A stretch of 64,000 nt of DNA from an uncultured Mycoplasmatota bacterium (GTDB lineage Bacteria; Bacillota_I; Bacilli_A; RF39; UBA660): contig URIY01000001.1 in NCBI GenBank assembly GCA_900547995.1, positions 2,912-66,911 of the forward strand. Reading direction: 5' to 3'. This document shows positions 1-47,931 of the stretch, one piece after another (position 1 is the first letter of the stretch; every line of letters starts with the position of its first letter). Position numbers and translations under genes: made by a program. The notes below the pieces were generated by a model that was given only the letters and a program-made list of their open reading frames with translations, was not told the origin of the DNA and searched no databases.

Positions 1-1073
1 GAATTTATAGTCTTTATTTTTTTATCATAAACATTCATTTGATCAATAAACATTTTATAGTGTTCTTCTTGAAGTTTTATATTATGTTTTAAATCATCTA
101 GTTTTGTCATTAATGATTGATTAATAAAAAGATAGTCATCATTTTTATCATAATATTTATAACTAAATTCAAATGGATCGATATGAGATTTACAATAAGG
201 ACATATCTCATTATCATAATTCTTATAGTTTTTATTATTGTCAGAAATATTATTTTTTAATTCCTCTAATAAATGCTCTACTTCAGTTTTACTATTTTGT
301 AATTGAATTATTTTATTTCTCGTATCGTTTAAATTTTTTACTATCTCATTATACTCATTTTTACTTAATTCTATTTCGTGATTTAATGATGTCATATCTA
401 AAGAATAATTGTTGCCAGACAATTCTTTTTCTATTTTTTGTATTAATTTATCTAAATCATTAGCTTCCTTTTTGTTTGCTTCTAATTCATCATTACTGTC
501 CTTTAATTTTTTATCTAAATCATAATATTCTTCATTAAATACACCAAAATGAGATAGCAAAGCATATTTTTTATAATTGCTATACTGTGCTAATCCCTTA
601 AATGAACTAAACGTTGTACAATTTAATCCAGTTTGATCTACATAATTTAATAAATACATATATGTTGGTGGAGTTAATTCCAATCTATTTTCTCTATTTG
701 GTAATTCTATATAAAAATCAAATAGTTCACTTAATTTTTCTGACAATTCTATTCTTCTTGTCGTTTCAAAAATAGTTTTAAAATTAGAATCAACTATTCT
801 GAAATAATTATTTGATCTTATAAAATAATATTTATCATCGTTTATATTTATATCTAATATTGTAGTTTTATTTGCAAAATCCCATTTTGGATCAAATGAA
901 CAATCTGCTCCTAAAGTACTATATATACTTTTCATTATTACAGATTTACCACGTTTATTACCATTTTCCTTACATGAGGTAACGAAATTAATGCCATCTT
1001 TGAATTCAGTATGATATGCTTTTTTTTCTTTTAAAGAGTATATATATAATCCATTTATAACTAATTTTTTCAT
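1..1073 (-). CDS. SMC/Rad50-like ATPase, N-terminal ~357 aa only (LmuB-like; gene continues beyond window start). N-terminal ABC-ATPase-like head with a non-canonical GNKRGKS P-loop-like motif, long coiled coil, CPYC zinc-hook-like motif
   Basis: Manual translation of the minus strand from ATG at 1071-1073: MKKLVINGLYIYSLKEKKAYHTEFKDGINFVTSCKENGNKRGKSV..., heptad-rich Lys/Glu coiled-coil, then ...NEICPYCKSH... (Rad50-type CPxC hook). Start lies 1 nt after the stop of the upstream 351-aa ORF, so the two are translationally coupled. Not in the ORF track because it is truncated at the edge. Confidence 0.45.
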   Translation of the reverse strand, partial: MKKLVINGLYIYSLKEKKAYHTEFKDGINFVTSCKENGNKRGKSVIMKSIYSTLGADCSFDPKWDFANKTTILDININDDKYYFIRSNNYFRIVDSNFKTIFETTRRIELSEKLSELFDFYIELPNRENRLELTPPTYMYLLNYVDQTGLNCTTFSSFKGLAQYSNYKKYALLSHFGVFNEEYYDLDKKLKDSNDELEANKKEANDLDKLIQKIEKELSGNNYSLDMTSLNHEIELSKNEYNEIVKNLNDTRNKIIQLQNSKTEVEHLLEELKNNISDNNKNYKNYDNEICPYCKSHIDPFEFSYKYYDKNDDYLFINQSLMTKLDDLKHNIKLQEEHYKMFIDQMNVYDKKIKTIN

Positions 1074-1074
1074 A

Positions 1075-2130
1075 TTATTTCATTTCCTCCTTAATCTCTT
1101 CTACGCAATATATAACCATAGTAAATATTGTACTTTCATCATCATATATAGGGAATTTAATATCCTGATGGTTATTTTTAAAATTTATTGCATATTCTTT
1201 CAAACTATTAGCATATCCTAATTCTATATCCTTTTTAATTGTATCACAAATTATGTCTATAAATTCATTTTTTTTCTTATCCTTACCAGATATTATTTCT
1301 GTTAACGCTTTTAGACATTTTATTTGAAGGGAAAAATTATCATTTGTTAAACTCGTAATTTGTTCCTCGCATTTTTTATGAAAATCACTATGTTGCGAGT
1401 AATGATAATTAACCATGTCAGTAAACTCTTTTTTACTTATTGCTTTATTTTGATATAAATCTTCAAAGCTACATTCTTTTTCGTATTTCGCTTTATTAAT
1501 AGCTATTGCTTTAATCGAGTCTAATAAAACAGTAGGCTTATTGATAGAACTTTTCTTTTCTTCTTCATAAAACTTGCTTAATTTACCTATTATACTATTT
1601 TCGAAATCTTGAACACCAACATTTCTATATAAATAATAAATGTTTTTTAAGTTAATTGTTTCTTGATTAGTTTCTTTTTGTAAATGTTCTATAATTTTTT
1701 TCTTAACATCTAAATCAATTTCATCTAATAGTATAATTTCATTAGGTTTTGTTGCATATTGATTGTTAACCAAAGGCGCATTCGACACAAGCAATACCGA
1801 AATATTTTCTTTCTCTTCTTCTGTTTTTCCTGATATACTATAAATTCTTCCTATTATTGACTGAGATTTATCACTTTTTTTATTTGTTAAAAAACTAACC
1901 TTATTTGATTTTCCAGTATCGGAAGTTTTTACTTGATAAAACTTTAGTTTATTATCAAAATGTAATTCAATATCGCATACATAGTCAAAAACAACATAAT
2001 AATTATCTATTTTGTTGTAATTATCAATTAATTGCTCTATTCCATATAAAACTTCAAAATCAAATCTATTTTTTGTACGTGATCCTGCTAAGTCATATGG
2101 AAGATTACTATATATCTCCTTTAACTCCAT
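1075..2130 (-). CDS. PD-(D/E)xK nuclease-like protein, candidate Lamassu LmuA (Cap4/DUF4297-type effector)
   Basis: 351 aa. N-terminal segment ...YYVVFDYVCDIELHFDNKLKFYQVKT... fits the D...(D/E)-x-K restriction-endonuclease-fold motif. Tightly coupled upstream of the SMC-like ATPase gene, the gene order expected for lmuA-lmuB. Confidence 0.4.
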   Translation of the reverse strand: MELKEIYSNLPYDLAGSRTKNRFDFEVLYGIEQLIDNYNKIDNYYVVFDYVCDIELHFDNKLKFYQVKTSDTGKSNKVSFLTNKKSDKSQSIIGRIYSISGKTEEEKENISVLLVSNAPLVNNQYATKPNEIILLDEIDLDVKKKIIEHLQKETNQETINLKNIYYLYRNVGVQDFENSIIGKLSKFYEEEKKSSINKPTVLLDSIKAIAINKAKYEKECSFEDLYQNKAISKKEFTDMVNYHYSQHSDFHKKCEEQITSLTNDNFSLQIKCLKALTEIISGKDKKKNEFIDIICDTIKKDIELGYANSLKEYAINFKNNHQDIKFPIYDDESTIFTMVIYCVEEIKEEMK

Positions 2131-2262
2131 TATTATTCCCCCATATAAAAGATAATTTAGATTATTATACCATAAATTGAATTTTTTTATTATATAATAC
2201 TACTTATTATTTTATAATAATTGGAATTATGCTATAATATTATCAGAAATTGGAGGGTTATT

Positions 2263-3063
2263 ATGGCAAATATAAACTTTGAAACTTATTTTAGTGAAAG
2301 CGAAAATAAATATTATGATTCGAAAATTATAATTAATATTCTAGAAAATATACTAGGAAAATCAATTAACGAAATAAAGAAAGATGTTAATGATAATCAA
2401 ATTGTTGTTACAAGGGAAAAAATTGAAAAATATCTTGAACAAAAATTTATTGAAGAAGATCCTGAATTAAAAAAGAGAATTGAAAGTCCAAGTCCTAAAA
2501 GAAGCAGAAATATTGCTGAATGGACAAAACAAGATATTGAAAATTATTCACAAGAGTTTGTAGATGATTTAAGTGTAGCAAGATATTGTTTCGAGCCTTA
2601 TACATTAGAGTACTTTAATAGATATACAGCCATTGTAAGAAATAAAGTTAATATATTATTAAGTCTTATTGAAAAAATTGGCAATAAAGAAATTCAACCA
2701 ATACAAGAGTTGTTAACTGAGTTAGATATTGTATTAGATGAAAATGGTAATGTTCTAAAAAGTGATATAGTTCGCTTAATTACACCTACTATTTATAACA
2801 TTAATTATTTAAATGAAAAACTTGCAAAAGCTAATGACTTATCAACATACCTAACTTTCAAAATGTCAAAACATTCATTATATAGAGATGGTTTCTCTGA
2901 AGGAGAAGTTTATCCTAGTCAATCAATACAAATTAATAGTTTACAATATGATTATATTCAAGGTAATGTTAGATTATCTGAAAATCAAAGAAAAACACTT
3001 GAAGAAGAAAGAAGTAAAAGTCTTAAAAAAAGTGCTGAATTTATATGTAATTTATTTAATTAA
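2263..3063 (+). CDS. hypothetical protein (266 aa from the ATG with a GGAGG RBS; the track ORF starts at 2221)
   Basis: ORF track 2221..3063. A GGAGG sits 8 nt upstream of ATG 2263 (MANINFETYF...). No recognisable motifs. Lies in the island, divergent from the Lamassu-like operon. Confidence 0.5.
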   Translation: MANINFETYFSESENKYYDSKIIINILENILGKSINEIKKDVNDNQIVVTREKIEKYLEQKFIEEDPELKKRIESPSPKRSRNIAEWTKQDIENYSQEFVDDLSVARYCFEPYTLEYFNRYTAIVRNKVNILLSLIEKIGNKEIQPIQELLTELDIVLDENGNVLKSDIVRLITPTIYNINYLNEKLAKANDLSTYLTFKMSKHSLYRDGFSEGEVYPSQSIQINSLQYDYIQGNVRLSENQRKTLEEERSKSLKKSAEFICNLFN

Positions 3064-3070
3064 TTAAAGC

Positions 3071-3098
3071 AAAAGGAAGAGATAAACTCTTCCTTTTG
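3071..3098. terminator. bidirectional hairpin terminator between convergent genes
   Basis: AAAAGGAAGAG-ATAAA-CTCTTCCTTTTG: 10-bp GC-containing stem flanked by an A-run on one side and a T-run on the other, between 2263..3063(+) and 3170..3997(-). Confidence 0.5.
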
Positions 3099-3169
3099 AA
3101 AAACTTCTACCAAGTGTATAAATACACCTGCAACAATCTAAAGTACTTTAATTATACCATTTTAACTCT

Positions 3170-3997
3170 CTAAGTCAACACTTTTTCACGATTTTCTTTA
3201 GATTTATAAATAGTATTATGTTTTTTAATAGTTCCATTTGTTTCTTTTATTTCTTCAAAAGCATAATACTTCTTTATTATTTTTAATATAGCATCATTAT
3301 CTATTTTAGTAATAGTTGCTATTTTATTATTTATATAATATGGTTCTCTAATTCTATTAGAACTAATATTAATTAAGTTTTCTAATCTAGCAGTTCCTAA
3401 TTTTTCATCTAATAAATCATAGTGAAAATAATAATTATCATCTTTATGTTTTGAAGTAAGTGGTATAGCAGTCCACATTTTTTTATTTGATGCACTTCTC
3501 CATAATATTGCTGGTCTTAATTTTCTTAATTCGCTACCAATATTATACCCTAAATCTACCCAATATATAGCTCCAACTTTTAAATTAGTAGTATCATCAC
3601 CATTTTTATTTATTAATTCTAACTTATCTTTACACCATTTATTATATGATATGCCATCTGGATCATTATTTGTATTATCTTTAACATAGTTTAAAAAACT
3701 AATTTTAGATCTTAATAAAATATCATCAAATTCTTTATTAGTTATTTTAATAGGTTTACCTTTAATGTAGACACATCTTTTAATATTAGAGCGATTATAA
3801 TCAGTTATTTCATCTAATACCGCATATTTATTAATAGATTTTAAATGAATACTATTTTCTTTTTCTTCATTATAAACAGGTACTCCAACATAATGATTTT
3901 GTGATATATCATAAAGAATCAAAATCCATTGTTTATTATCATTTAAATTAAATTCATATACTTGCTTCCAATTTATAGTAAGCATATTTATCACCAA
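3170..3997 (-). CDS. PemK/MazF-family toxin domain (C-terminal half) fused to an unknown ~135-aa N-terminal domain
   Basis: C-terminal region GAIYWVDLGYNIGSELRKLRPAILWRS...WTAIPLTS matches the MazF/PemK signature (G-x-[IV]-[YW]-x-x-D-[LF]...GSE....RP-[AV]-[IL]...hhh-P-[IL]-T; compare B. subtilis EndoA [26 protein letters not shown]...TAIVAAIT). Total length 275 aa against ~115 aa for stand-alone MazF. Confidence 0.55.
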   Translation of the reverse strand: MVINMLTINWKQVYEFNLNDNKQWILILYDISQNHYVGVPVYNEEKENSIHLKSINKYAVLDEITDYNRSNIKRCVYIKGKPIKITNKEFDDILLRSKISFLNYVKDNTNNDPDGISYNKWCKDKLELINKNGDDTTNLKVGAIYWVDLGYNIGSELRKLRPAILWRSASNKKMWTAIPLTSKHKDDNYYFHYDLLDEKLGTARLENLINISSNRIREPYYINNKIATITKIDNDAILKIIKKYYAFEEIKETNGTIKKHNTIYKSKENREKVLT

Positions 3998-4012
3998 CTT
4001 TCTTTATTTTAA

Positions 4013-5332
4013 TTATCTTTCTAGTTCATCATCTTTTGATTTTTTTGTTTCATAAAATTCTTCAGCATACTCATCCATTTCATCATTAATATGTTTAGTT
4101 ACTTTTTCAATTTCTTTTTTATTAAATAGATTAAATTTTTTAAATGATTTTTCTCTCTTTCTTATAACTTCAGGATCATATTGTTGTTTAAAAAAATTAA
4201 GGTTAATATTATTATAATTAAATAATCTATCAATTAGATTTTGTATAAATTCTGGAAGTTTTTTGATTATTTTATTTAAATGATAAATAAGATAATCTGT
4301 TCTTTCTTTTAAATCATTGTATCTATTTTCAGTTTGATAATTGATACTCTTTAAATGTTCATTTTCTTCTTTTAATTTTTTATTTTCGTCTAATAATTGA
4401 TTTTTAGATTTAATAATAATTTTATTATTAAGTTTTTTCTTTTTATCAATTTCATCGTTTATATCATCTTTATCTTTATTAAGTTTAGTAATTTGTTTAT
4501 TGATAGATTCTTTATTATCTTCTAAATCAGATACTTCATCTTGAAGATTAGATATTTCTTGTTTAAGTCCTTTAACTCTTTCATTAAAGAGTTTTCTTTC
4601 ATATGAAGTAATATCTCTATTTTTACCTTTTTCTTTTTCTTTAAGTTTAGAATCTAATCCATAGACAATATTAAATTTATTAATACATCTTTCTCTCATC
4701 TTATCTTGAATAACTACTAATGATTCTTTTGTGAAGATAGATGTTTTACCAACTTGTCTTGATAAACCTGTTTTACAATTTTCTTTAACTGGAACTCCAA
4801 CTATATGCATATGAGGAGAATGTTCATCAAAGTGAATTGATGCATTAGCTATATAAAAGTCTGGAACTATTTCTTGTATATCTTCAAGTTGTTGTTCAAA
4901 TACCTGTGTCATTTGATATTTGTATTCTAAACTTTTCTCATCCCAATATTCCATGTTTCCAAGTTCGATAACTATCTCACAAGCAAGATCATGTTTTGTA
5001 TCATTAGCAATTTTATTAAAGTAGTTATTTATCTTTCTATCATCTCTAGTTTGTTTATTATTGTATTCAAGTCTTACTTCATCAAATAAATCTAAATATA
5101 ATTCTTTAACATCTTTAACAATATCATTTGAACCTTTGATTGTCTTAATTAATTCTTGATTATTATCGTATTGTCTTAAGTTATGATGATTAACTTTTCC
5201 TAATTGCTTAACATTTTGAATAGCATTATTATTTTTAGATGTTGTTCCTGATTGAGTATTCTTGGCTTCTTGTCTTGCTTTAATAGATTTGTTTTTATCA
5301 TTACCTAAATGTAGTGAATAAGATAATTCCAT
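4013..5332 (-). CDS. mob: MobV-family relaxase / plasmid recombination enzyme (Mob_Pre)
   Basis: 439 aa. Contains the HxDE..PHxH relaxase motif (ASIHFDEHSPHMHIVGVP) and a C-terminal Lys/Glu-rich coiled coil typical of Pre/Mob proteins. Confidence 0.75.
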   Translation of the reverse strand: MELSYSLHLGNDKNKSIKARQEAKNTQSGTTSKNNNAIQNVKQLGKVNHHNLRQYDNNQELIKTIKGSNDIVKDVKELYLDLFDEVRLEYNNKQTRDDRKINNYFNKIANDTKHDLACEIVIELGNMEYWDEKSLEYKYQMTQVFEQQLEDIQEIVPDFYIANASIHFDEHSPHMHIVGVPVKENCKTGLSRQVGKTSIFTKESLVVIQDKMRERCINKFNIVYGLDSKLKEKEKGKNRDITSYERKLFNERVKGLKQEISNLQDEVSDLEDNKESINKQITKLNKDKDDINDEIDKKKKLNNKIIIKSKNQLLDENKKLKEENEHLKSINYQTENRYNDLKERTDYLIYHLNKIIKKLPEFIQNLIDRLFNYNNINLNFFKQQYDPEVIRKREKSFKKFNLFNKKEIEKVTKHINDEMDEYAEEFYETKKSKDDELER

Positions 5333-5577
5333 TTAAATTACACCCCCTAAATTATGAATATTGAAAATGGCACGAAAGTGGCTTTGTCATTATTCATAAC
5401 TTCCTATATATCTTGTCAGAGACAAGATATGGAAGCTAAGGTTTACCACCTTAGAAACCGTTTATACTTTATTTCACAATAACTAAACTATCGTAATAGT
5501 TAAAGTTCATAAAGTATTAATTTTTAAATTGCTATCGCCACTTTCATTTACTTCGTAAACAAAACGTGCCACGCATT

Positions 5578-7485
<1,908 letters not shown>

Positions 7486-7649
7486 CTAAATACTACTGAC
7501 TCCTCACAATATTCAATATATAAAATTTTTTTATGTATATATTTTATCATAGATGTACCTCTCTTTCTAGAGAATACCTCTTTCATTGGTTATTTATAAT
7601 ATCACTTTTTTATGATTTGTCAATTCCCTGTTTAGGGAATAAGCAGTAT

Positions 7650-7931
7650 TTAGATTGTTTTTAAATAATCTTCTAATTCTGACAATTTAATCTTATTAGA
7701 TAAGTTTTCAATAAAAATTTCATTAGAATAATTAAAAGCAAGAAATGTAGTATTATTAATTATTATTCTATGTGGCTCAATATAAATTAAGTTAGTTTTA
7801 TCGACTTTTCTAATATTACCATTAATAATAGTTGGTTTATTATTAGTAAAATCACATATGAACTCAATTTTCTTTTTTAGTGATTCTTCTAATGAAAGTT
7901 CTTCTTTAATAATATTTACCATTGTTTCCAT
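7650..7931 (-). CDS. hypothetical small protein (93 aa) between integrase and tRNA-His
   Basis: ORF track only; no motifs recognised. Could be an accessory (directionality) factor, but there is no support for that. Confidence 0.3.
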   Translation of the reverse strand: METMVNIIKEELSLEESLKKKIEFICDFTNNKPTIINGNIRKVDKTNLIYIEPHRIIINNTTFLAFNYSNEIFIENLSNKIKLSELEDYLKTI

Positions 7932-8032
7932 CCTTTCTTTTTAAGTTAGGATAGTTTTTAACAACAAAAAAACTAATCCATTTCTGAATTAGTCATTTAT
8001 CATAACTCGAAAAGTTCGAGCAGATTTCACAA

Positions 8033-8109
8033 TGGGGCGAGATAAGGGAATCGAACCCTTGCATAACGGAACCACAATCCGCCGTGTTAACCACTTCACC
8101 AATCTCGCC
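8033..8109 (-). tRNA. tRNA-His (anticodon GUG) with the His-specific extra G-1 paired to C73 and an encoded CCA
   Basis: Reverse complement folds as a cloverleaf: GGCGAGA acceptor / GCGGA-UUGUGGU-UCCGU anticodon arm (GUG at positions 34-36) / GGGTTCGATTCCC T-arm; 77 nt. Confidence 0.8.
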
Positions 8110-38976: not shown

Positions 38977-41490
38977 TTATTCTTCTGTTGAATTTTCATT
39001 ACTGATTTCTTCAACTTTATCAACAATAGCAACTGTACTTACCTTTTGATTATCCTTTAGATTAATTAATCTAACACCTTGAGCAACTCTTCCGGTAGAT
39101 GATACTTGATCTAGTGGTAATCTTATGATAATTCCATTATCAGTAATTACCATTAAATCTTTATTTTCATCGTTTAAAGTTTTACATGCAACTATATTAC
39201 CATTTTTTTCTGTTACATTTAGTCCCTTAACACCTTTACTACCTCTATGAGTCATTCTATATTCGCTTATACTAGTTTTTTTACCATAACCGTTTTCTGT
39301 TACAACTAATACTTGATCATCAGTGTTTGCAATCTCACAATCAACTGCTTTACCATCACCAAGGTCAATACCTCTTACACCTGATGCTGTTCTTCCCATA
39401 ACACGAATTTCATTTTCATCAAAACGTATCATTCTTCCATTTGAACCAGCAATAATTATTTGATTACTTCCATTAGTTTTCTTTGCAGAAATTAATGCAT
39501 CATCATCTTTTAGTGTAATAGCAATCTTACCATTGCTTCTGATGTTTTCAAATTCACTAATATTGGTTTTCTTAATTAAACCGTTTTGTGTACAAAGTAC
39601 AATATAATTATTTGTATCATTATTAGTTACCTTTAACATTACTGTTATTTTTTCATCCTTATCAATTGTTAGCAAATTTACAATTGGTAAACCTTTAGAT
39701 TGCCTATTAAATGTTGGTATTTCATATCCCTTAACACGATATACTTTACCTTTATTACTAAAGAATAATAGATAGTCATGTGTTGTCATAGTAACAATAT
39801 TTTCAACAAAATCTTCCTCGTTTGTTGTCATACCCTTAATACCAACACCTCCACGATTTTGTAACTTGTATGTATCAGTCGTTACTCTCTTAATATACCC
39901 TTTATTTGTAAGAGTAATTATAATATCTTCTTCTGGTATTAATGATTCATCTTCAATATAATCAATAGCAGTCATATCAATGCTAGTTCTTCTATCATCG
40001 GCATATCTTTGCTTAATTTCAAGCATTTCATCTTTAATAATTTGATATACTCTATATTCATTAGCAAGAATATCCTTATAATCTTTAATTAATTCTAATA
40101 ATTCATTTAATTCTTGCTCAATTTTATCTCTTTCTAAGGCTGTTAATCTTCTTAATTTTAATTCTAGAATTGCATCAGCCTGAATATCAGATAATCCAAA
40201 GCGTGATATCAATTTTTCTTTTGCTTCTATATCACTTTCAGCATTTCTAATTATTCTTATTACTTCATCAATATAATCCAAAGCAATTTTATAACCTTCT
40301 AAGATATGAACTCTCTTCTCAGCCTTGGCTAAGTCAAATTTTGTTCTTCTAATAATAACAATTTTTTGATGATCTATATATTTTGATATAATATCCTTTA
40401 AACCAAGCGTTTTTGGAGTTAACCCATCAAGCATTAAGAATATTATTCCATATGAAATTTGAAAATTAGTATGTTTATATAGATTATTAAGTACAACATT
40501 TGGATTAGCGTCCTTTTTAAGAGTAATTGTTATCTTTACACCATCTTTTAAATCAGTATGATAATCGGCAATTCCATCAATAATCTTATTATGAACAAGT
40601 TCAGCAACCTTATTTTTTAATTCAAGGGTATTAACACCATATGGCACCTCTGTAAAAACAATACTACTATGATTGCCATGTTCTTCTATTTCGGCTCTAC
40701 TACGTATTGTTATAGTACCTCTACCTGTTTCATATGCCTTTTTAATTCCTGAATTTCCTAAAATAATACCACCGGTTGGAAAATCAGGTCCTTTAATATA
40801 ATTCATAAGTTCAAGTGTTGTAATATCAGGATTATCAATAAAAGCAACACATCCATCAATTACCTCACCTAAATTATGGGGAGGAATATTTGTTGCCATA
40901 CCAACGGCAATACCCATTGTTCCATTTACCAAAATATTAGGAAATCTAGATGGTAAAACGGATGGTTCTTTACATGTTTCATCAAAGTTACTGTCCATAT
41001 CAACAGTATCTTTATTTATATCTCTAAGTAATTCAAGAGAAATCTTAGAAAGACGAGCTTCAGTATAACGGTAAGCAGCGGCTCCATCACCTTCGATGTT
41101 ACCAAAGTTACCATGGCCATCAACTAACATATATCTTTCATTAAAATCTTGAGCAAGTCTTACCATAGCCTCATATATAGAACTATCACCATGTGGATGA
41201 TAATGTCCCATAACATATCCAACCGTAGTAGCACTCTTCTTATGTGGCTTATCTGGAGTATTATTTTCCTCGTACATTGACCATAATATTCTTCTATGAA
41301 CAGGCTTTAATCCATCTCTTAAATCTGGAAGTGCACGAGATGCAATAACACTCATTGAGTAATCAAGAAATGATTGTTGTACCTCATCAACAATATTATT
41401 TTCTTCTAAACTATCCCTTTCATGAAAATCACCATGAAAATTATTTTCTTTTTGTTCTTTTTCTTCTGAATTTAATACATCTTTATCCAT
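38977..41490 (-). CDS. gyrA: DNA gyrase subunit A
   Basis: 837 aa. Active-site region (AAAYRYTEARL...), QRDR-like segment (HPHGDSSIYEAMVRLAQDF), C-terminal beta-pinwheel repeats. Confidence 0.95.
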   Translation of the reverse strand: MDKDVLNSEEKEQKENNFHGDFHERDSLEENNIVDEVQQSFLDYSMSVIASRALPDLRDGLKPVHRRILWSMYEENNTPDKPHKKSATTVGYVMGHYHPHGDSSIYEAMVRLAQDFNERYMLVDGHGNFGNIEGDGAAAYRYTEARLSKISLELLRDINKDTVDMDSNFDETCKEPSVLPSRFPNILVNGTMGIAVGMATNIPPHNLGEVIDGCVAFIDNPDITTLELMNYIKGPDFPTGGIILGNSGIKKAYETGRGTITIRSRAEIEEHGNHSSIVFTEVPYGVNTLELKNKVAELVHNKIIDGIADYHTDLKDGVKITITLKKDANPNVVLNNLYKHTNFQISYGIIFLMLDGLTPKTLGLKDIISKYIDHQKIVIIRRTKFDLAKAEKRVHILEGYKIALDYIDEVIRIIRNAESDIEAKEKLISRFGLSDIQADAILELKLRRLTALERDKIEQELNELLELIKDYKDILANEYRVYQIIKDEMLEIKQRYADDRRTSIDMTAIDYIEDESLIPEEDIIITLTNKGYIKRVTTDTYKLQNRGGVGIKGMTTNEEDFVENIVTMTTHDYLLFFSNKGKVYRVKGYEIPTFNRQSKGLPIVNLLTIDKDEKITVMLKVTNNDTNNYIVLCTQNGLIKKTNISEFENIRSNGKIAITLKDDDALISAKKTNGSNQIIIAGSNGRMIRFDENEIRVMGRTASGVRGIDLGDGKAVDCEIANTDDQVLVVTENGYGKKTSISEYRMTHRGSKGVKGLNVTEKNGNIVACKTLNDENKDLMVITDNGIIIRLPLDQVSSTGRVAQGVRLINLKDNQKVSTVAIVDKVEEISNENSTEE

Positions 41491-41500
41491 AATTCACCCC

Positions 41501-43429
41501 CTATATATCTAAGTTTTCTACATATCCAGCATTTTCTTCAATAAATTTACGTCTTGGCTCTACTTCATCACCCATTAACGTTTCAAATACTTTATCTGCT
41601 GCTATACAATCATTTACAGTTATTTTTCTTAATACTCTTTTTTCAATGTCCATTGTTGTTTCATTAAGTTCCTCAGCATCCATTTCACCAAGTCCCTTCA
41701 TTCGGGCAATTTCAGCACGTTGTCTAACATTATCTGGAAGAGATTTTAAATATTCATCTCTTTCATCTTCTGTTAAAACATATTTTCTTGTTTTTCCATG
41801 CATTATTCTAAATAATGGTGGCTGTGCAGCATACACATGTCCTGCCTCTACTATTGGTTTAAAAAATCTGTAAAATAATGTTAATAATAATACACGAATA
41901 TGTGCCCCATCAACATCGGCATCGGTCATGATTATTATTTTATGATATCTTAACTTATTTAAATCAAAATCTTCACCTATACCTGTACCAAAAGCAGTTA
42001 TAATTGATCTAATTTCTTCATTTGATAATGCTTTATCAAGTCTTGCCTTTTCAACATTAAGAATCTTACCTCTAAGTGGTAAAATGGCTTGTGTCATTGA
42101 ATCTCTTCCTTTTTTAGCTGATCCACCTGCTGAATCTCCTTCGACTATAAATATTTCAGATATTGTAGGATCTTTACTTTTACAGTCAGATAATTTGCCA
42201 AAGAAATTAGTTGTAACTAAATCACTTTTTCTTGTTATCTCACGAGCTTTTTTAGCAGCATTTCTTGCACGAGATGCAAGTAAAGCCTTATTTATTATTA
42301 TTTTAGCATAATCAGGATTTTCCATTAAAAATCTTTCAAATCCCTCAGAAAAAACATTATCAGCAAGTTTTCTAACTTCTGAATTTCCCAAACGTCCTTT
42401 AGTTTGACCTTCAAACTGTGGATTAGGATGTTTACAAGAAATAATCATTGTTAATCCTTCTTTTACATCATCACCAGTAAGGGAATCATCTTTTTCTTTA
42501 AGTAATCCTGATTTTCTAGCATATGAATTAATAATTCTTGTTAATGCTCTTCTAACTCCTTCTTCATGAGTACCACCATCATGGGTATTTATATTATTTA
42601 CAAAAGAATAAATATTGTCATTATAACTTGAATTATATTGCATTGCAACCTCAAAGAAAACGCCATCTTCCTCACCTTGTAAATGTATAATTTGTTCATG
42701 TATTGGTGTTTTATTTTGATTAATGAATTTTACATATTCACTAATTCCACCTTCATAGTGAAAAGTTTCTCCTGTTGTATCCTCATCATCTCTATCATCA
42801 CGAATTGTTAAAGCAAGACCTTTATTTAAAAATGCAAGTTCTCTTATCCTTACCTTTAGAGTTTCATAATCATATATTGTCGTATCAAATATTTCAGGAT
42901 CTGGTTTAAAGGTAACGGTTGTTCCTGTTCTATTTATATCACAATCTCCAATTACAGTTAAATGTTGAGCGATTTTTCCACCATCAACAAATTTTGTTTC
43001 ATATATTTTACCATCTTTATAAACAGTAACGGTAACACTTGTTGATAAAGCATTTACAACACTAGCACCTACTCCATGAAGACCTCCGGATACTTTATAT
43101 CCTCCGCCTCCAAATTTTCCGCCGGCATGTAATACTGTGTATACTGTTTCAACAGTTGAAATACCTGTTTTAGCATGTAAACCAACAGGAATCCCACGTC
43201 CATTATCTTTTACAGTAATTGAATTATCTTTATTAATAATGACCTCAATAGCATTACAATATCCAGCCAATGCTTCATCTATAGCATTATCAACTATTTC
43301 CCATACCAAATGATGTAAACCTTTTACATCCGTAGTACCAATATACATACCTGGTCTTTTGCGAACTGCTTCTAAGCCTTCTAGGACTTGTATATCGGAA
43401 GCATCATAATGTTCTTTATTATTCTCCAT
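41501..43429 (-). CDS. gyrB: DNA gyrase subunit B
   Basis: 642 aa. GHKL ATPase motifs, Toprim ([10 protein letters not shown]), and the [12 protein letters not shown] motif. Confidence 0.95.
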
Positions 43430-44531
43430 TTTGCACCTCTTCTATTTTTCCATCACAAATTTTAATTAATTTGGCTTTTTTTAATATATTTTCATTTATA
43501 TTTTTTAAATCAGTGGTAGTAATTATGACTTGAAAATCATCATCAATATATTTTAATAATAAATTTTTTTTAATATCATCTAATTCACTAAATACATCAT
43601 CCAAAAGTAATATTGGTTTTTCACCTTTAATATTTTTAAATAAACTTATTTCAGCAAGTTTATATGCAATGATTGACATTCTTTGTTGACCTTGTGATCC
43701 ATTTTCTTTTAAATTATTGTTATCAAGTATAAAATAATAGTCATCTTTATGTGGACCAATAACAGTAGTTCCTAACCTAACTTCATCATTATATCTTTTT
43801 TTAAACTCCTCTAGCATTGTCTTTTGGACATCATTACTATCTAAATTGACACTTGGCTTATAAATTAGTTTAAAATTTTTATACCCGCTTATTTCATAAT
43901 AAATATCACCTATTATTTTATTTAAATCCTCAAAATACTTTTTCCTTATTTCATATATTGAAACAGATCTTTGTATTAAATAATTTGTTAAAATAGAAAA
44001 ATAATTTAAATCAACATTTTCATTAAATTTGATTTTTTTTAAATAGTCATTACGCATTTTAAGTAATTTGTTATAATCATTAAGATAGATAATATAATTA
44101 TTATAAAGCTGAGATAATTCTACATTTAAATATCTTCTTCTCTCTTGTGGAGAACCTTTTATTAAATTTAAGTCTTCTGGATAGAAAATGATAATATTAG
44201 AATTAATAATATAATCATTTATTTTTTTTACACGATTATTGTTTAATTCTAATTTTTTTCCACTGTTATCAATAGATAATTTTTTTACATCATCAATTGG
44301 CTTATTTTCAAAAATACCTATCAAATTAGTAAATTCTTGATTATGTTTAATTAGATTACTATCAACATATAAACGATGTGATTTTGTAAGACATAGTACA
44401 AATATTCCTTCTAATATATTTGTTTTACCTTGAGCATTATTTCCATATATAATATTTATTTTTTTATTAAATTCAATTTCTAGATTATCATAATTTCGAA
44501 AATTAGTTAAATTTAATTTCTTAATTATCAT
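43419..44531 (-). CDS. recF: DNA replication and repair protein RecF
   Basis: 370 aa. Walker [13 protein letters not shown], signature and Walker B ([11 protein letters not shown]); overlaps the gyrB start by 11 nt. Confidence 0.85.
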
Positions 44532-44637
44532 TAATTTTTATTTTTATGCCTCTATTTTGAATTTTAATGCTCATTGTATACCACCTCATACATATATATT
44601 ATATCATAAATTTGGCTTTTTTTATATAAAAAATAGG

Positions 44638-45090
44638 TTATTCACCTATTTTCCTTCTCCTTAATACAGAATCTAATCTGGTCGCTCTTAAAATTTGATT
44701 TTCGATACTTTCAAATGATATACATAATTCTAACTGATAACCATTTATAAATTCTAATGTTGTACATTTTCTTTCTCTTTTATAATCAGTCAAATTATTT
44801 AAAGATATCCAAGAACATTCTTTACCCCTTGGTGATGATGTTGGAAAGAAAATAATATTCTTTGTCTCTTCGATTATAATTGGTGATTTATAGTTTATAC
44901 CCATTAAATGTTTAGTTCCTTCAAATCGACCCATATAAGAACTTCCAAAAAATTTACAACTTTCATCAATTATTGACATTGCGGATTTTTCCACATAAAA
45001 TTCATCCTCTTTCTCAACAACTTTAGAAATTTTATTATTTATCCATATTATTGCACATGTTGATGAATTAATTTCATACGTCTTTTTCAT
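44638..45090 (-). CDS. comK: ComK-family competence transcription factor-like protein (probable start at MKKTYEI)
   Basis: ...IIDESCKFFGSSYMGRFEGTKHL...IIFFPTSSPRGKECSWISL...SFESIENQILRATRL... aligns with B. subtilis ComK (VDRSCRFFGSSYAGRKAGTYEV...IFLFPTLSSTRPQCGWIS...SFENQVYRTAWL). Confidence 0.6.
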   Translation of the reverse strand: MKKTYEINSSTCAIIWINNKISKVVEKEDEFYVEKSAMSIIDESCKFFGSSYMGRFEGTKHLMGINYKSPIIIEETKNIIFFPTSSPRGKECSWISLNNLTDYKRERKCTTLEFINGYQLELCISFESIENQILRATRLDSVLRRRKIGE

Positions 45091-45231
45091 TTTATTCCCC
45101 CTATTTATATCTTTCTCCAAAAAAAGAAATTATCCTTGTTATATCATACAAATTTGTCAAATTTTATCATTTTTTGTCGCAGATTTGACATTTTTGTCGT
45201 TTTTGACAAAAAATGTAGAAAAAAAGAACTT

Positions 45232-46353
45232 TTAATAAGTTCTTATTGGTAAAATCAATTCTGTTAAATCTTGATTATCATCACTTCTTAATATAATAGG
45301 TTTAATTTCTCCATTAAAACATAAAGTTACTTTATCACCATTAAATGCTTTAAGAGCATCCATCATATATCTAGAACTAAAAGCAATTTTAATATTTTCA
45401 TTATTATTTTTTAGTGCTGATATATTTTCTTCAACATTACCTATTTCTGGTATATTTGAAGAAATTTTAATTTTTTCATCTAATGTTTCTAAATTAATGG
45501 TATTTTTATCATCCTGATTAGTAAGTAAAGATGCTCTATCAAGTGCATTATACATTTCATATAGATTAATAGTTACCTCGAGGGCAAACTCATTAGGAAT
45601 TAATTTTGAAGTATCTGGATAACTTCCGCTTATTAAAGTGGTCATCATGATAATATTATTAAATTTAAAAATTACTTTATTATTAAATATATGCATTTCT
45701 ATTTTTTCTTCATCATCATTGAATAATTTAATTAATTCGTTTAAGTTTTTAGTTGGAATAATTATATTTATATTGTTTTCCACAATACAATCTAACTTTA
45801 CAACTTTCTTAGATAAACGATATGAATCTGTTGCAACACATTCAAGTGTATCACCTTCTATTTTAAAATTAATTCCTGTTAAAACTGGTCTTGATTCTTG
45901 TGTAGAAGATGCAAATGTAGTTTGACTAACAATATTCTTAAATATCTTTTTATCAAAAGTAATAGGATTTTTACTAATATCCAAATTTAAATCAGGGAAT
46001 TCATTTACACTATTACAATTTAAGTTAAATGAAGAATTATCTGTAAATATATATACTTTTGAATCCATTACTTCTTCTATATTTACAACCGTATTTGGCA
46101 ATTTTCTTATTATATCATATATATATCTACCAGATATAACAATTGAACCAGTTTGTTCTATCTCGACTATTTCATCTTTATTTATAAAAGTTTTAATAGC
46201 GATTTCATTGTCTGTACTCATTAAATACAAGCCTTCTTCTGTTAACTCAAATTTTATACAGTTAAGTATGGGTATTAAATTTTTAGTTGACACTCCTTTA
46301 ATAACATAATTTAAATGTTCCATTAATTTTTCTTGTTTAATTTTAAATTTCAT
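45232..46353 (-). CDS. dnaN: DNA polymerase III beta sliding clamp
   Basis: 373 aa; three-domain beta-clamp length and MKFKI...NL N-terminus; downstream of dnaA. Confidence 0.9.
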   Translation of the reverse strand: MKFKIKQEKLMEHLNYVIKGVSTKNLIPILNCIKFELTEEGLYLMSTDNEIAIKTFINKDEIVEIEQTGSIVISGRYIYDIIRKLPNTVVNIEEVMDSKVYIFTDNSSFNLNCNSVNEFPDLNLDISKNPITFDKKIFKNIVSQTTFASSTQESRPVLTGINFKIEGDTLECVATDSYRLSKKVVKLDCIVENNINIIIPTKNLNELIKLFNDDEEKIEMHIFNNKVIFKFNNIIMMTTLISGSYPDTSKLIPNEFALEVTINLYEMYNALDRASLLTNQDDKNTINLETLDEKIKISSNIPEIGNVEENISALKNNNENIKIAFSSRYMMDALKAFNGDKVTLCFNGEIKPIILRSDDNQDLTELILPIRTY

Positions 46354-46392
46354 ATCTATTCTCCTTTTATATATAAGTATTATTATTATTAG

Positions 46393-46492
46393 TGTGGATA
46401 TGGTGGATAACTTTACAAATCCTTTAATTTTAAGGTATAAAACAAGTGTAAATTATTCATCATTTCCTGTGGATTTTCTTAGTTTTTCCACT
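46393..46492. other. oriC, dnaA-dnaN intergenic part: DnaA-box cluster
   Basis: DnaA-box-like 9-mers: TGTGGATAT (46393..46401), GGTGGATAA (46402..46410), TGTGGATTT (46468..46476), TTTTCCACT (46484..46492). Confidence 0.5.
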
Positions 46493-47845
46493 TTACTTTA
46501 ATTGACTTTCAATTTTTTTAATTATAAGTTCAAGGTTACTATCTTTTTTTATAGCTTTTTTAATTTTATCCACCGAGTGCATAACAGTCGTATGATCTTT
46601 TCCACCAAATTCCATTCCTATTTTGGGAAACGATTCTTCACAGACAACTCTACATATATACATAGCCACTTGTCTTGGAACAGCGATGTTAGCATTTCTT
46701 TTCTTACTTTTTAAGTCATCTATGGTAATGTTATATGTGTCGGCAACAAGTTGTTGTACTAAATCAATTTTATTTTTTGATATTATTGTTTTAGCGAAAT
46801 AATCTTTTAAAGCCTCTATGGCAAGTTCAATTGTTATACTAGAACCATTCATCATTGTGGAAAAAGCGGCTACCCTAGTAATTGCACCTTCAAGTTTTCT
46901 TATATCACTTGTACAATTACTCGCTATATACTCTTTAACTTCAATTGGGAAGTATTTAACCATATCATTGCCTTCAATTTTTTTATCAATAATATGCATT
47001 CTAAGTTCAAAATCCGGTGGAAATACGTTTGTAGTAAGTCCCCAACTAAATCTAGTCTGAAGTCTTTCCTCAAGGGCTTTTAAGTCATCGGGTGATCTAT
47101 CTGATGTAATAATAATTTGTTTATTATTCCCATATAATTCATTAAAGGTATTAAAAAATTCTTGTTGGGCTTTATTAGCAATTTGCAAATATTGTATATC
47201 ATCTATCATTAAGACATCAATATCTCTATATTTAGTTTTAAAATATTTTACATCATTAATGTTATCATTATCTTTATTCTTTCTATATAAATCAATAAAA
47301 TCATTAACAAATTGCTCACTTGTTACATATAAAACTCTTTTTTTTGAGTTTTTAACAATATAGTTTCCAATAGCGTGCATCAAATGTGTTTTTCCTAGCC
47401 CACTTTTTCCATATATAAATAAAGGATTATACATTATACCTGGTTTTTCAGCAACAGCTAGTGCTACTGTTCGTGCAAATTTATTACTCTCCCCTACTAT
47501 AAAATTTTCAAAAGTATATTGTGGTTTTAAATTGTTTTCCACCATATTAATTGATGGAACACCTATTTCTTCATCATTTACTTGAACATTCTTTTCAATT
47601 TCATCATCCGTATAATACTCAAATTGAAAATTGGAGCCTGTAACAAGAGCAAATGTTTCCACGATAAGTTCATTATAGTTTTCTTTCAAATGCTTTTTAT
47701 GAATATGCATAGGAACAATTACCTTGGCTGTTTCATTATTTAATTCTGCAAGTTTTGTTTCCATAAACCATGTTTCATATAGCATTGGTGAAATTTCTTC
47801 TTTTATCTTATCCAAAAAGGTTTTCCATATATTTTCTAAGTCCAT
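46493..47845 (-). CDS. dnaA: chromosomal replication initiator protein DnaA (start at MDLENIW with GGGTGAGG RBS; the track ORF starts at an upstream GTG)
   Basis: AAA+ Walker A GKSGLGKTHL, Walker B, C-terminal DNA-binding domain (...HTTVMHSVDKI...). Confidence 0.95.
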   Translation of the reverse strand: MDLENIWKTFLDKIKEEISPMLYETWFMETKLAELNNETAKVIVPMHIHKKHLKENYNELIVETFALVTGSNFQFEYYTDDEIEKNVQVNDEEIGVPSINMVENNLKPQYTFENFIVGESNKFARTVALAVAEKPGIMYNPLFIYGKSGLGKTHLMHAIGNYIVKNSKKRVLYVTSEQFVNDFIDLYRKNKDNDNINDVKYFKTKYRDIDVLMIDDIQYLQIANKAQQEFFNTFNELYGNNKQIIITSDRSPDDLKALEERLQTRFSWGLTTNVFPPDFELRMHIIDKKIEGNDMVKYFPIEVKEYIASNCTSDIRKLEGAITRVAAFSTMMNGSSITIELAIEALKDYFAKTIISKNKIDLVQQLVADTYNITIDDLKSKKRNANIAVPRQVAMYICRVVCEESFPKIGMEFGGKDHTTVMHSVDKIKKAIKKDSNLELIIKKIESQLK

Positions 47846-47931
47846 AACCTCACCCACTACATCAATCTATCCCCATTGTACCTTATTTTTACACAAAAAA
47901 CAAACAAAATGTGACAAAATCACAAAAAAAC

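Follow-up and report, generated by a model that had tools for sequence, protein, structure and literature searches.

A probable type I Lamassu gene pair with a Cap4-nuclease effector at the end of a tRNA-His mobile element in a gut Bacilli genome

The gene pair at the left end of the window

We analysed a stretch of 64,000 nucleotides (the window) of contig URIY01000001.1 from an uncultured Mycoplasmatota bacterium of the gut. At its left end, on the minus strand, lie two adjacent genes, lmuA and lmuB, which we assign to Lamassu, a family of anti-phage and anti-plasmid defence systems. lmuA (2130..1075) starts with ATG, encodes a protein of 351 residues and stops with TAA at 1077..1075. The ATG of lmuB follows at 1073..1071, leaving exactly one base (1074) between the two genes. 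A preliminary description of this DNA, made without database searches, had given the same length for the first protein and the same one-nucleotide spacing, and both stand. lmuB remains open to window position 1, so that the window (1..1073) holds the first 357 of its 558 codons. The preliminary description was thus right that the ATPase gene is cut by the window, but it had placed the C-terminal half outside; in fact 64% of the residues are inside and about a third is missing beyond position 1. The G+C content of the DNA in this region is 22-26%, and the other two registers across the lmuB stretch are rich in stop codons. As stop codons are frequent in DNA of such low G+C content, open reading frames (ORFs) of this length are not due to chance. 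A predicted ribosome-binding site for lmuB, GGAGG, can be read from the sequence at 1090..1086 (minus strand), within the 3' end of lmuA, which makes tight or coupled translation of the two genes plausible.

Predicted structures of LmuA and LmuB

The lmuA product matches the Pfam family Cap4_nuclease (PF14130, formerly DUF4297) over residues 15-208 (E = 1.2e-29) and the PADLOC LmuA profile PDLC00239 from end to end (residues 1-342, E = 4.7e-72). Cap4_nuclease is its only Pfam match, and no NCBIfam model matches it. The nuclease motif noticed in the preliminary description, D...D-I-E...Q-V-K, corresponds to Asp49, Asp53-Ile54-Glu55 and Gln66-Val67-Lys68. In an alignment of 30 LmuA relatives with sequence identities down to 24%, Asp49, Asp53, Glu55, Gln66 and Lys68 are invariant. 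An AlphaFold2 model of LmuA (predicted local distance difference test score, pLDDT, 89.7) shows an α/β nuclease domain followed by an all-helical C-terminal domain. The first of these (residues ~1-170) is predicted to be a Cap4-type PD-(D/E)xK nuclease acting on double-stranded DNA (dsDNA), with Asp53-x-Glu55...Gln66-x-Lys68 as its motif; the helical domain spans residues ~176-350 of the model. The preliminary description had proposed comparing a predicted structure of this protein with Cap4 folds. The best match in a Foldseek search of the PDB is 9ux7_C, the LmuA chain of the LmuAB-DNA complex of Bacillus cellulasensis, followed by HamA of the Hachiman system, the LmuA proteins of Vibrio and Salmonella, and Cap4 of the cyclic-oligonucleotide-based anti-phage signalling system (CBASS).

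The match to CBASS Cap4 (PDB 6vm6, 6wam) reflects a nuclease domain of the same family, PF14130. The remainder of the protein differs: CBASS Cap4 senses nucleotides through a SAVED/CARF domain and needs a cyclic oligonucleotide for its activation, whereas LmuA has an all-helical, Lamassu-type C-terminus. Nor is there a CD-NTase gene nearby; the neighbouring genes encode a relaxase, a recombinase, a PemK-like protein and an unassigned protein of 266 residues.

The complete lmuB gene was taken from a public metagenome contig, L001, which shows no difference from the window in the 2,281 aligned bases where the two overlap. It encodes 558 residues. The PADLOC LmuB profile PDLC00254 matches the fragment encoded in the window with E = 1e-104 and the full protein, end to end, with E = 4.2e-167; a dozen other LmuB profiles match less well. 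When a profile built from 34 LmuB relatives was compared with the PDB, residues 5-548 aligned with residues 2-552 of 'Lamassu protein LmuB' from B. cellulasensis (9ux7_A/9ux8; 562 residues) with E = 3.3e-32. This alignment places Lys43 on Lys37 of the B. cellulasensis protein, Cys291 and Cys294 on Cys285 and Cys288, and Asp480-Ser481 on its Asp-Ser pair. In B. cellulasensis LmuB the K37A substitution abolishes ATPase activity, and the protein is described as having a 'canonical Zn-hook motif 285CQYC288' and a 'naturally deviant Walker B' (bioRxiv 10.1101/2025.06.23.660979).

All three functional motifs are intact in the LmuB described here. The Walker A motif is GNKRGKS (residues 38-44), in which Gly38, Gly42, Lys43 and Ser44 are invariant among the 34 relatives. 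The preliminary description had called this stretch non-canonical. That holds as a matter of pattern, since it reads G-x3-GKS and not G-x4-GKS, but it is the norm of the family, and the biochemically active LmuB of B. cellulasensis also has G-x3-GKS (KGNTKGKS, with Lys37). The CPYC motif (residues 291-294) is a putative zinc hook; Cys291, Pro292 and Cys294 are invariant in the same alignment. A Walker B motif, which the preliminary description had suggested seeking in the full-length ATPase, is present in the part read on L001 as Pro-Ile-Val-Phe-Asp480-Ser481, with the Asp and Ser again invariant in the 34 relatives. IVFDS conforms to the deviant pattern reported for short Lamassu systems, hhhhD[Q/S/T/E] (PMC12663957).

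The AlphaFold2 model of LmuB (pLDDT 87.7) was built on a homologue, P0001, that is 98% identical to the part encoded in the window. A β-rich half of the head (residues 1-175) leads into two helices, 181-219 and 227-286, separated by a kink at 220-226; a long return helix (301-425) then runs back to the C-terminal half of the head. The CPYC motif sits in the loop 287-300 at the apex of the coiled coil, between helices 227-286 and 301-425. The part of LmuB encoded in the window thus comprises the N-terminal half of an ABC/SMC head, the outgoing coiled coil (181-286), the hook and the first part of the return helix. Among PDB structures Foldseek ranks 9ux7_A highest (E = 2.9e-24), followed by type II LmuB proteins, a model of YydD, and then the heads of SMC and Rad50 proteins. 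The SMC/Rad50-like ATPase with a CPYC hook postulated in the preliminary description is therefore borne out by hidden Markov model (HMM) searches, by the profile alignment and by the predicted fold.

A zinc-hook ATPase encoded next to a nuclease could also be a housekeeping repair complex of the SbcCD or Rad50-Mre11 kind, acting on DNA ends. LmuB does share with these an ABC head, an antiparallel coiled coil and a CxxC zinc hook, and SbcCD has been proposed as the evolutionary ancestor of Lamassu (PMC12663957). The partner, however, has the fold of a Cap4 PD-(D/E)xK nuclease and not of an Mre11/SbcD phosphoesterase. The full-length LmuB matches no SbcC, RecN, RecF, Rad50 or SMC family model: with the NCBIfam models for SbcC, Rad50 and SMC it reaches 9-29 bits, far below their cut-offs (300-1087), and these scores come from the coiled coil alone. 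The ATPase has 558 residues, compared with ~1000 for SbcC, and its coiled coil is much shorter; its Walker B motif is deviant. The nuclease gene comes first in the pair, and the pair lies on a mobile element in a defence context and has a patchy distribution. Taken together, these observations effectively refute a housekeeping SbcCD-like pair, in agreement with the preliminary description, which had already argued against one.

Gene order, identity and proposed mechanism

A scan of one genome per species yielded 77 further loci encoding relatives, mostly in Bacillota: metagenome-assembled genomes (MAGs) of gut Bacilli and Clostridia, Anaerococcus, Veillonella, Paenibacillus, Streptococcus oralis and others. 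Gene order was compared at 85 loci. An ORF of the LmuA family lies directly upstream of lmuB at 78 of these, nearly always with overlapping ORFs or with no more than 10 nt between them; three of the 78 have larger gaps or a truncated lmuA. At the other seven, either a contig end interrupts the locus or lmuB is represented by a mere fragment. Within 3 kb on either side, even the most frequent ORF family occurs at no more than 11 of the ~78 loci. The constant adjacency of lmuA and lmuB and the lack of a recurring third ORF family indicate that LmuC is missing, and hence that the architecture is that of type I. Such a two-gene architecture has been described as the result of LmuC loss in 'clade S' (PMC12663957). 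Reading a nuclease gene followed by an ATPase gene as lmuA-lmuB, as the preliminary description did, is thus upheld by the PADLOC matches, by the similarity of both proteins to 9ux7 and by this synteny.

The type II, or ABC-3C, architecture with three components, as in DdmABC, is the commoner one in Lamassu (bioRxiv 10.1101/2025.06.23.660979; PMC12663957), and we considered whether an LmuC-like middle component might have been overlooked. The unassigned gene for 266 residues that adjoins lmuA in divergent orientation could be seen as a candidate. Against this, there is no room for a further gene between lmuA and lmuB, neither here nor at the 78 loci where the two genes adjoin or overlap; the flanks hold no recurrent ORF family; and the 266-residue neighbour is limited to close relatives and has no PADLOC match. 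The type II systems of Vibrio cholerae (DdmABC) and Salmonella enterica (LmuACB; PDB 9uxh, 9hqu, 9hr5, 9nxx) resemble the locus described here in having a Cap4 LmuA whose C-terminal domain oligomerises, an SMC-like LmuB that is short and deviates in its Walker B motif and, probably, a logic of sequestration, release and tetramerisation. They differ in needing LmuC and in having an LmuB of 630-650 residues, which in V. cholerae is without a zinc hook. Their fold matches to our LmuB model are weaker (1e-13 to 1e-15, compared with 3e-24 for type I), and the best matches by both sequence and fold are to type I LmuB, ahead of type II proteins. We consider a three-component system very improbable.

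The closest system of known structure is the type I Lamassu of B. cellulasensis NIO-1130 (PDB 9ux7/9ux8), which provides the top fold match for both proteins and the top profile match for LmuB. In both, lmuA precedes lmuB in an operon without lmuC, and LmuA consists of a Cap4 nuclease and a helical C-terminal domain. Both LmuB proteins are ~560 residues long, with a G-x3-GKS and an hhhhDS motif, a coiled coil that is kinked, and one CxxC hook at about residue 290. The NIO-1130 system reportedly goes back to Doron et al. 2018. Unlike it, the pair described here belongs to a different PADLOC sub-family (PDLC00254/PDLC00239), comes from an AT-rich lineage of gut Bacilli MAGs and is carried by a mobile element at tRNA-His.

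The exact LmuA protein of the window is present on at least 11 public metagenome contigs, which come from different samples. lmuB is full length wherever the contig allows. The two ORFs are intact and retain all residues that are invariant in the family. The pair is well conserved and probably functional. A decayed or non-functional remnant, carried along as passive cargo, could be imagined because decay does occur in this family of elements (the copy on L001 has lost the N-terminus of its recombinase), but the state of lmuA and lmuB themselves speaks clearly the other way, and we regard such a remnant as very improbable.

Several observations weigh against assigning the pair to Lamassu of type I. 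Sequence identity to the characterised type I proteins is low, at 22% for LmuB and 17% for LmuA in structural alignments. Single-sequence phmmer searches of the PDB with either protein gave no real matches, and the LmuA family profile found no sequence match there either, so that a comparison of folds was needed for this protein. With 351 residues, LmuA is longer than 9ux7_C (304), and the details of its C-terminal domain may not be the same. The last third of lmuB lies outside the window and had to be supplied by L001. Finally, a Pfam search with the full LmuB gave spurious matches to the coiled coil and, at E <= 0.1, none to DUF3732. The preliminary description had named DUF4297 and DUF3732 as profiles whose failure to match would count against Lamassu, and the Cap4_nuclease match answers to the first of these. 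We considered treating the absence of DUF3732 as a refutation, and dropped the idea once the LmuB of solved structure (its sequence reconstructed from the 9ux7_A alignment) proved to have no match to DUF3732 either. As even that protein is without the domain, its absence here is no argument against membership, and the test was not a valid one.

Based on the HMM matches, the profile match to an LmuB of solved structure, the predicted folds and the conserved synteny, we conclude, with a probability of roughly 90%, that lmuA and lmuB are a 'short' Lamassu system of type I, with two genes and no LmuC, whose effector is a Cap4 nuclease; it would act against phages and plasmids, and is carried as the terminal cargo of an element inserted at tRNA-His.

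How such a system might work can be proposed by homology to B. cellulasensis LmuAB and to the LmuACB systems of Vibrio and Salmonella; the stoichiometry, the sensing of DNA ends, the role of ATP, activation by tetramerisation and the defence phenotype itself are all drawn by this analogy. Two LmuB protomers would associate with each other, both at the CPYC zinc hook and along the folded coiled coils, and would keep one LmuA monomer inactive by holding the helical C-terminal domain of LmuA close to the distal coiled coil. The LmuB heads would bind ATP through Lys43 and, owing to the deviant Walker B motif (IVFD-S), hydrolyse it slowly. The signal that they recognise would be free ends of dsDNA, or intermediates in the replication of an invader. 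Binding of DNA, together with ATP binding and slow hydrolysis, would release LmuA, which would then form a tetramer via its C-terminal domain. In the tetramer two Cap4 nuclease domains would be brought together into a composite active site, and non-specific DNA cleavage would lead to abortive infection.

Two further ideas are speculative, and we think them rather unlikely. As Lamassu (DdmABC) also eliminates plasmids, the element might turn the system, which may be its only recognisable defence cargo, on competing mobile DNA, besides or instead of protecting the host. Separately, this LmuAB sub-family, in which LmuA is larger and identity to the B. cellulasensis proteins is only ~20%, could represent an independent loss of LmuC and hold its effector in a different way.

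Systems of this kind are known, and a specialist would find little here to be surprised at; the importance of the locus is mostly one of annotation. The recognition of a Lamassu system without database searches has been vindicated, and the analysis adds a divergent, AT-rich example from gut Bacilli of the rarer, LmuC-less type I, with all functional motifs intact. The carrier element could be a natural vehicle for studying the spread of Lamassu and a compact test case for type I function.

The carrier element and its surroundings

lmuA is separated from the divergent gene for the 266-residue protein (2263-3063, plus strand) by an intergenic region at 2131..2262. From its sequence we read a predicted ribosome-binding site for lmuA, GGGGG, at 2142..2138 and an extended -10-like motif, TGgTATAAT, at 2172..2164, both on the minus strand; the latter is a putative promoter of the operon. 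A scan for consensus promoters missed this motif, which has no matching -35 hexamer, and the number of sites found in that scan was not above that in shuffled sequence. The 266-residue protein has no match in Pfam, NCBIfam or PADLOC, and its gene is kept beside lmuAB in close relatives only. Just past its stop codon is a hairpin with an A/T-rich tail, called on the minus strand (3098..3070).

The surroundings are most simply read as an integrative mobilisable element of ~8.7 kb that has inserted at a tRNA-His gene and carries the Lamassu operon as its final cargo. The tRNA-His gene (anticodon GTG; 8033..8108, minus strand) was found by ARAGORN and is the probable integration site. Leftward from it, all on the minus strand up to the 266-residue gene, follow an ORF of 90 residues (7922..7650); a large serine recombinase (7431..5578; Pfam Resolvase, E = 1.5e-33, and Recombinase, E = 6e-16); a Mob_Pre relaxase (5332..4013; Pfam Mob_Pre, E = 3.9e-12); and a protein of 271-275 residues (3997..3170) whose C-terminal half is a PemK/MazF-like toxin domain and whose N-terminal extension of ~135 residues is without assignment. 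There is no obvious antitoxin gene for the PemK/MazF-like protein. The order ends with the 266-residue gene, lmuA and lmuB. PADLOC gave no match for the neighbouring proteins (the PemK-like, the 266-residue, an Ltp-repeat and a 130-residue protein). The preliminary description had placed the pair beside other defence-like genes, a claim that finds weak support, the neighbours being the PemK/MazF-like protein and the unassigned 266-residue protein.

The distal end of the element was located by comparing L001 with four other genomes in which the module is 88-99% identical. The similarity breaks off abruptly 98-99 bp past the lmuB stop codon, so that the pair does lie at the edge of an island, as the preliminary description had it. 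At the point where the five contexts diverge (L001:12800-12833) the sequence reads '...AGGGTTTCAGATAACCTTTGTTATCGCCCCA' and resembles a degenerate 3' end of tRNA-His; beyond it each of the five genomes has its own terminator-like hairpin. The tRNA-His gene and this tRNA-3'-end-like sequence suggest the two attachment (att) sites of an integrative mobilisable element. When up to 3 mismatches were allowed, the window proved to contain no second copy of the element-end sequence, the likeness to the tRNA-His 3' end being looser than that. Megablast of window positions 1-8000 against plasmid and phage collections gave no match: the carrier is not among the plasmids or phages catalogued there. The element was found in several species-level MAGs of gut Bacilli at 90-100% identity.

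The copy on L001 looks rearranged or decayed. At L001:4660-4810 unrelated sequence takes the place of the first ~35 codons of the recombinase, among them those for the catalytic-serine motif RVSTEDQ, and runs into genes for a helix-turn-helix protein and a DnaB_C-like protein. Immediately beyond the end of the element, L001 (13197-14243) and a second contig, L003, encode a protein of 348 residues with four Ltp repeats, which matches PF07553, 'host cell surface-exposed lipoprotein', with E = 1.9e-50.

From ~8.5 kb onwards the window is chromosomal, with genes for AbgT, MscS, ParB, ParA and FtsH, of which ParA, ParB and FtsH lie at 11-16 kb. Further along, at 38977-47857 on the minus strand, is a run of ORFs whose sizes, taken as sizes only, fit dnaA (454 residues), dnaN (373), recF (370), gyrB (642) and gyrA (837). 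The window thus appears to adjoin the chromosomal replication origin of a genome with ~25% G+C.

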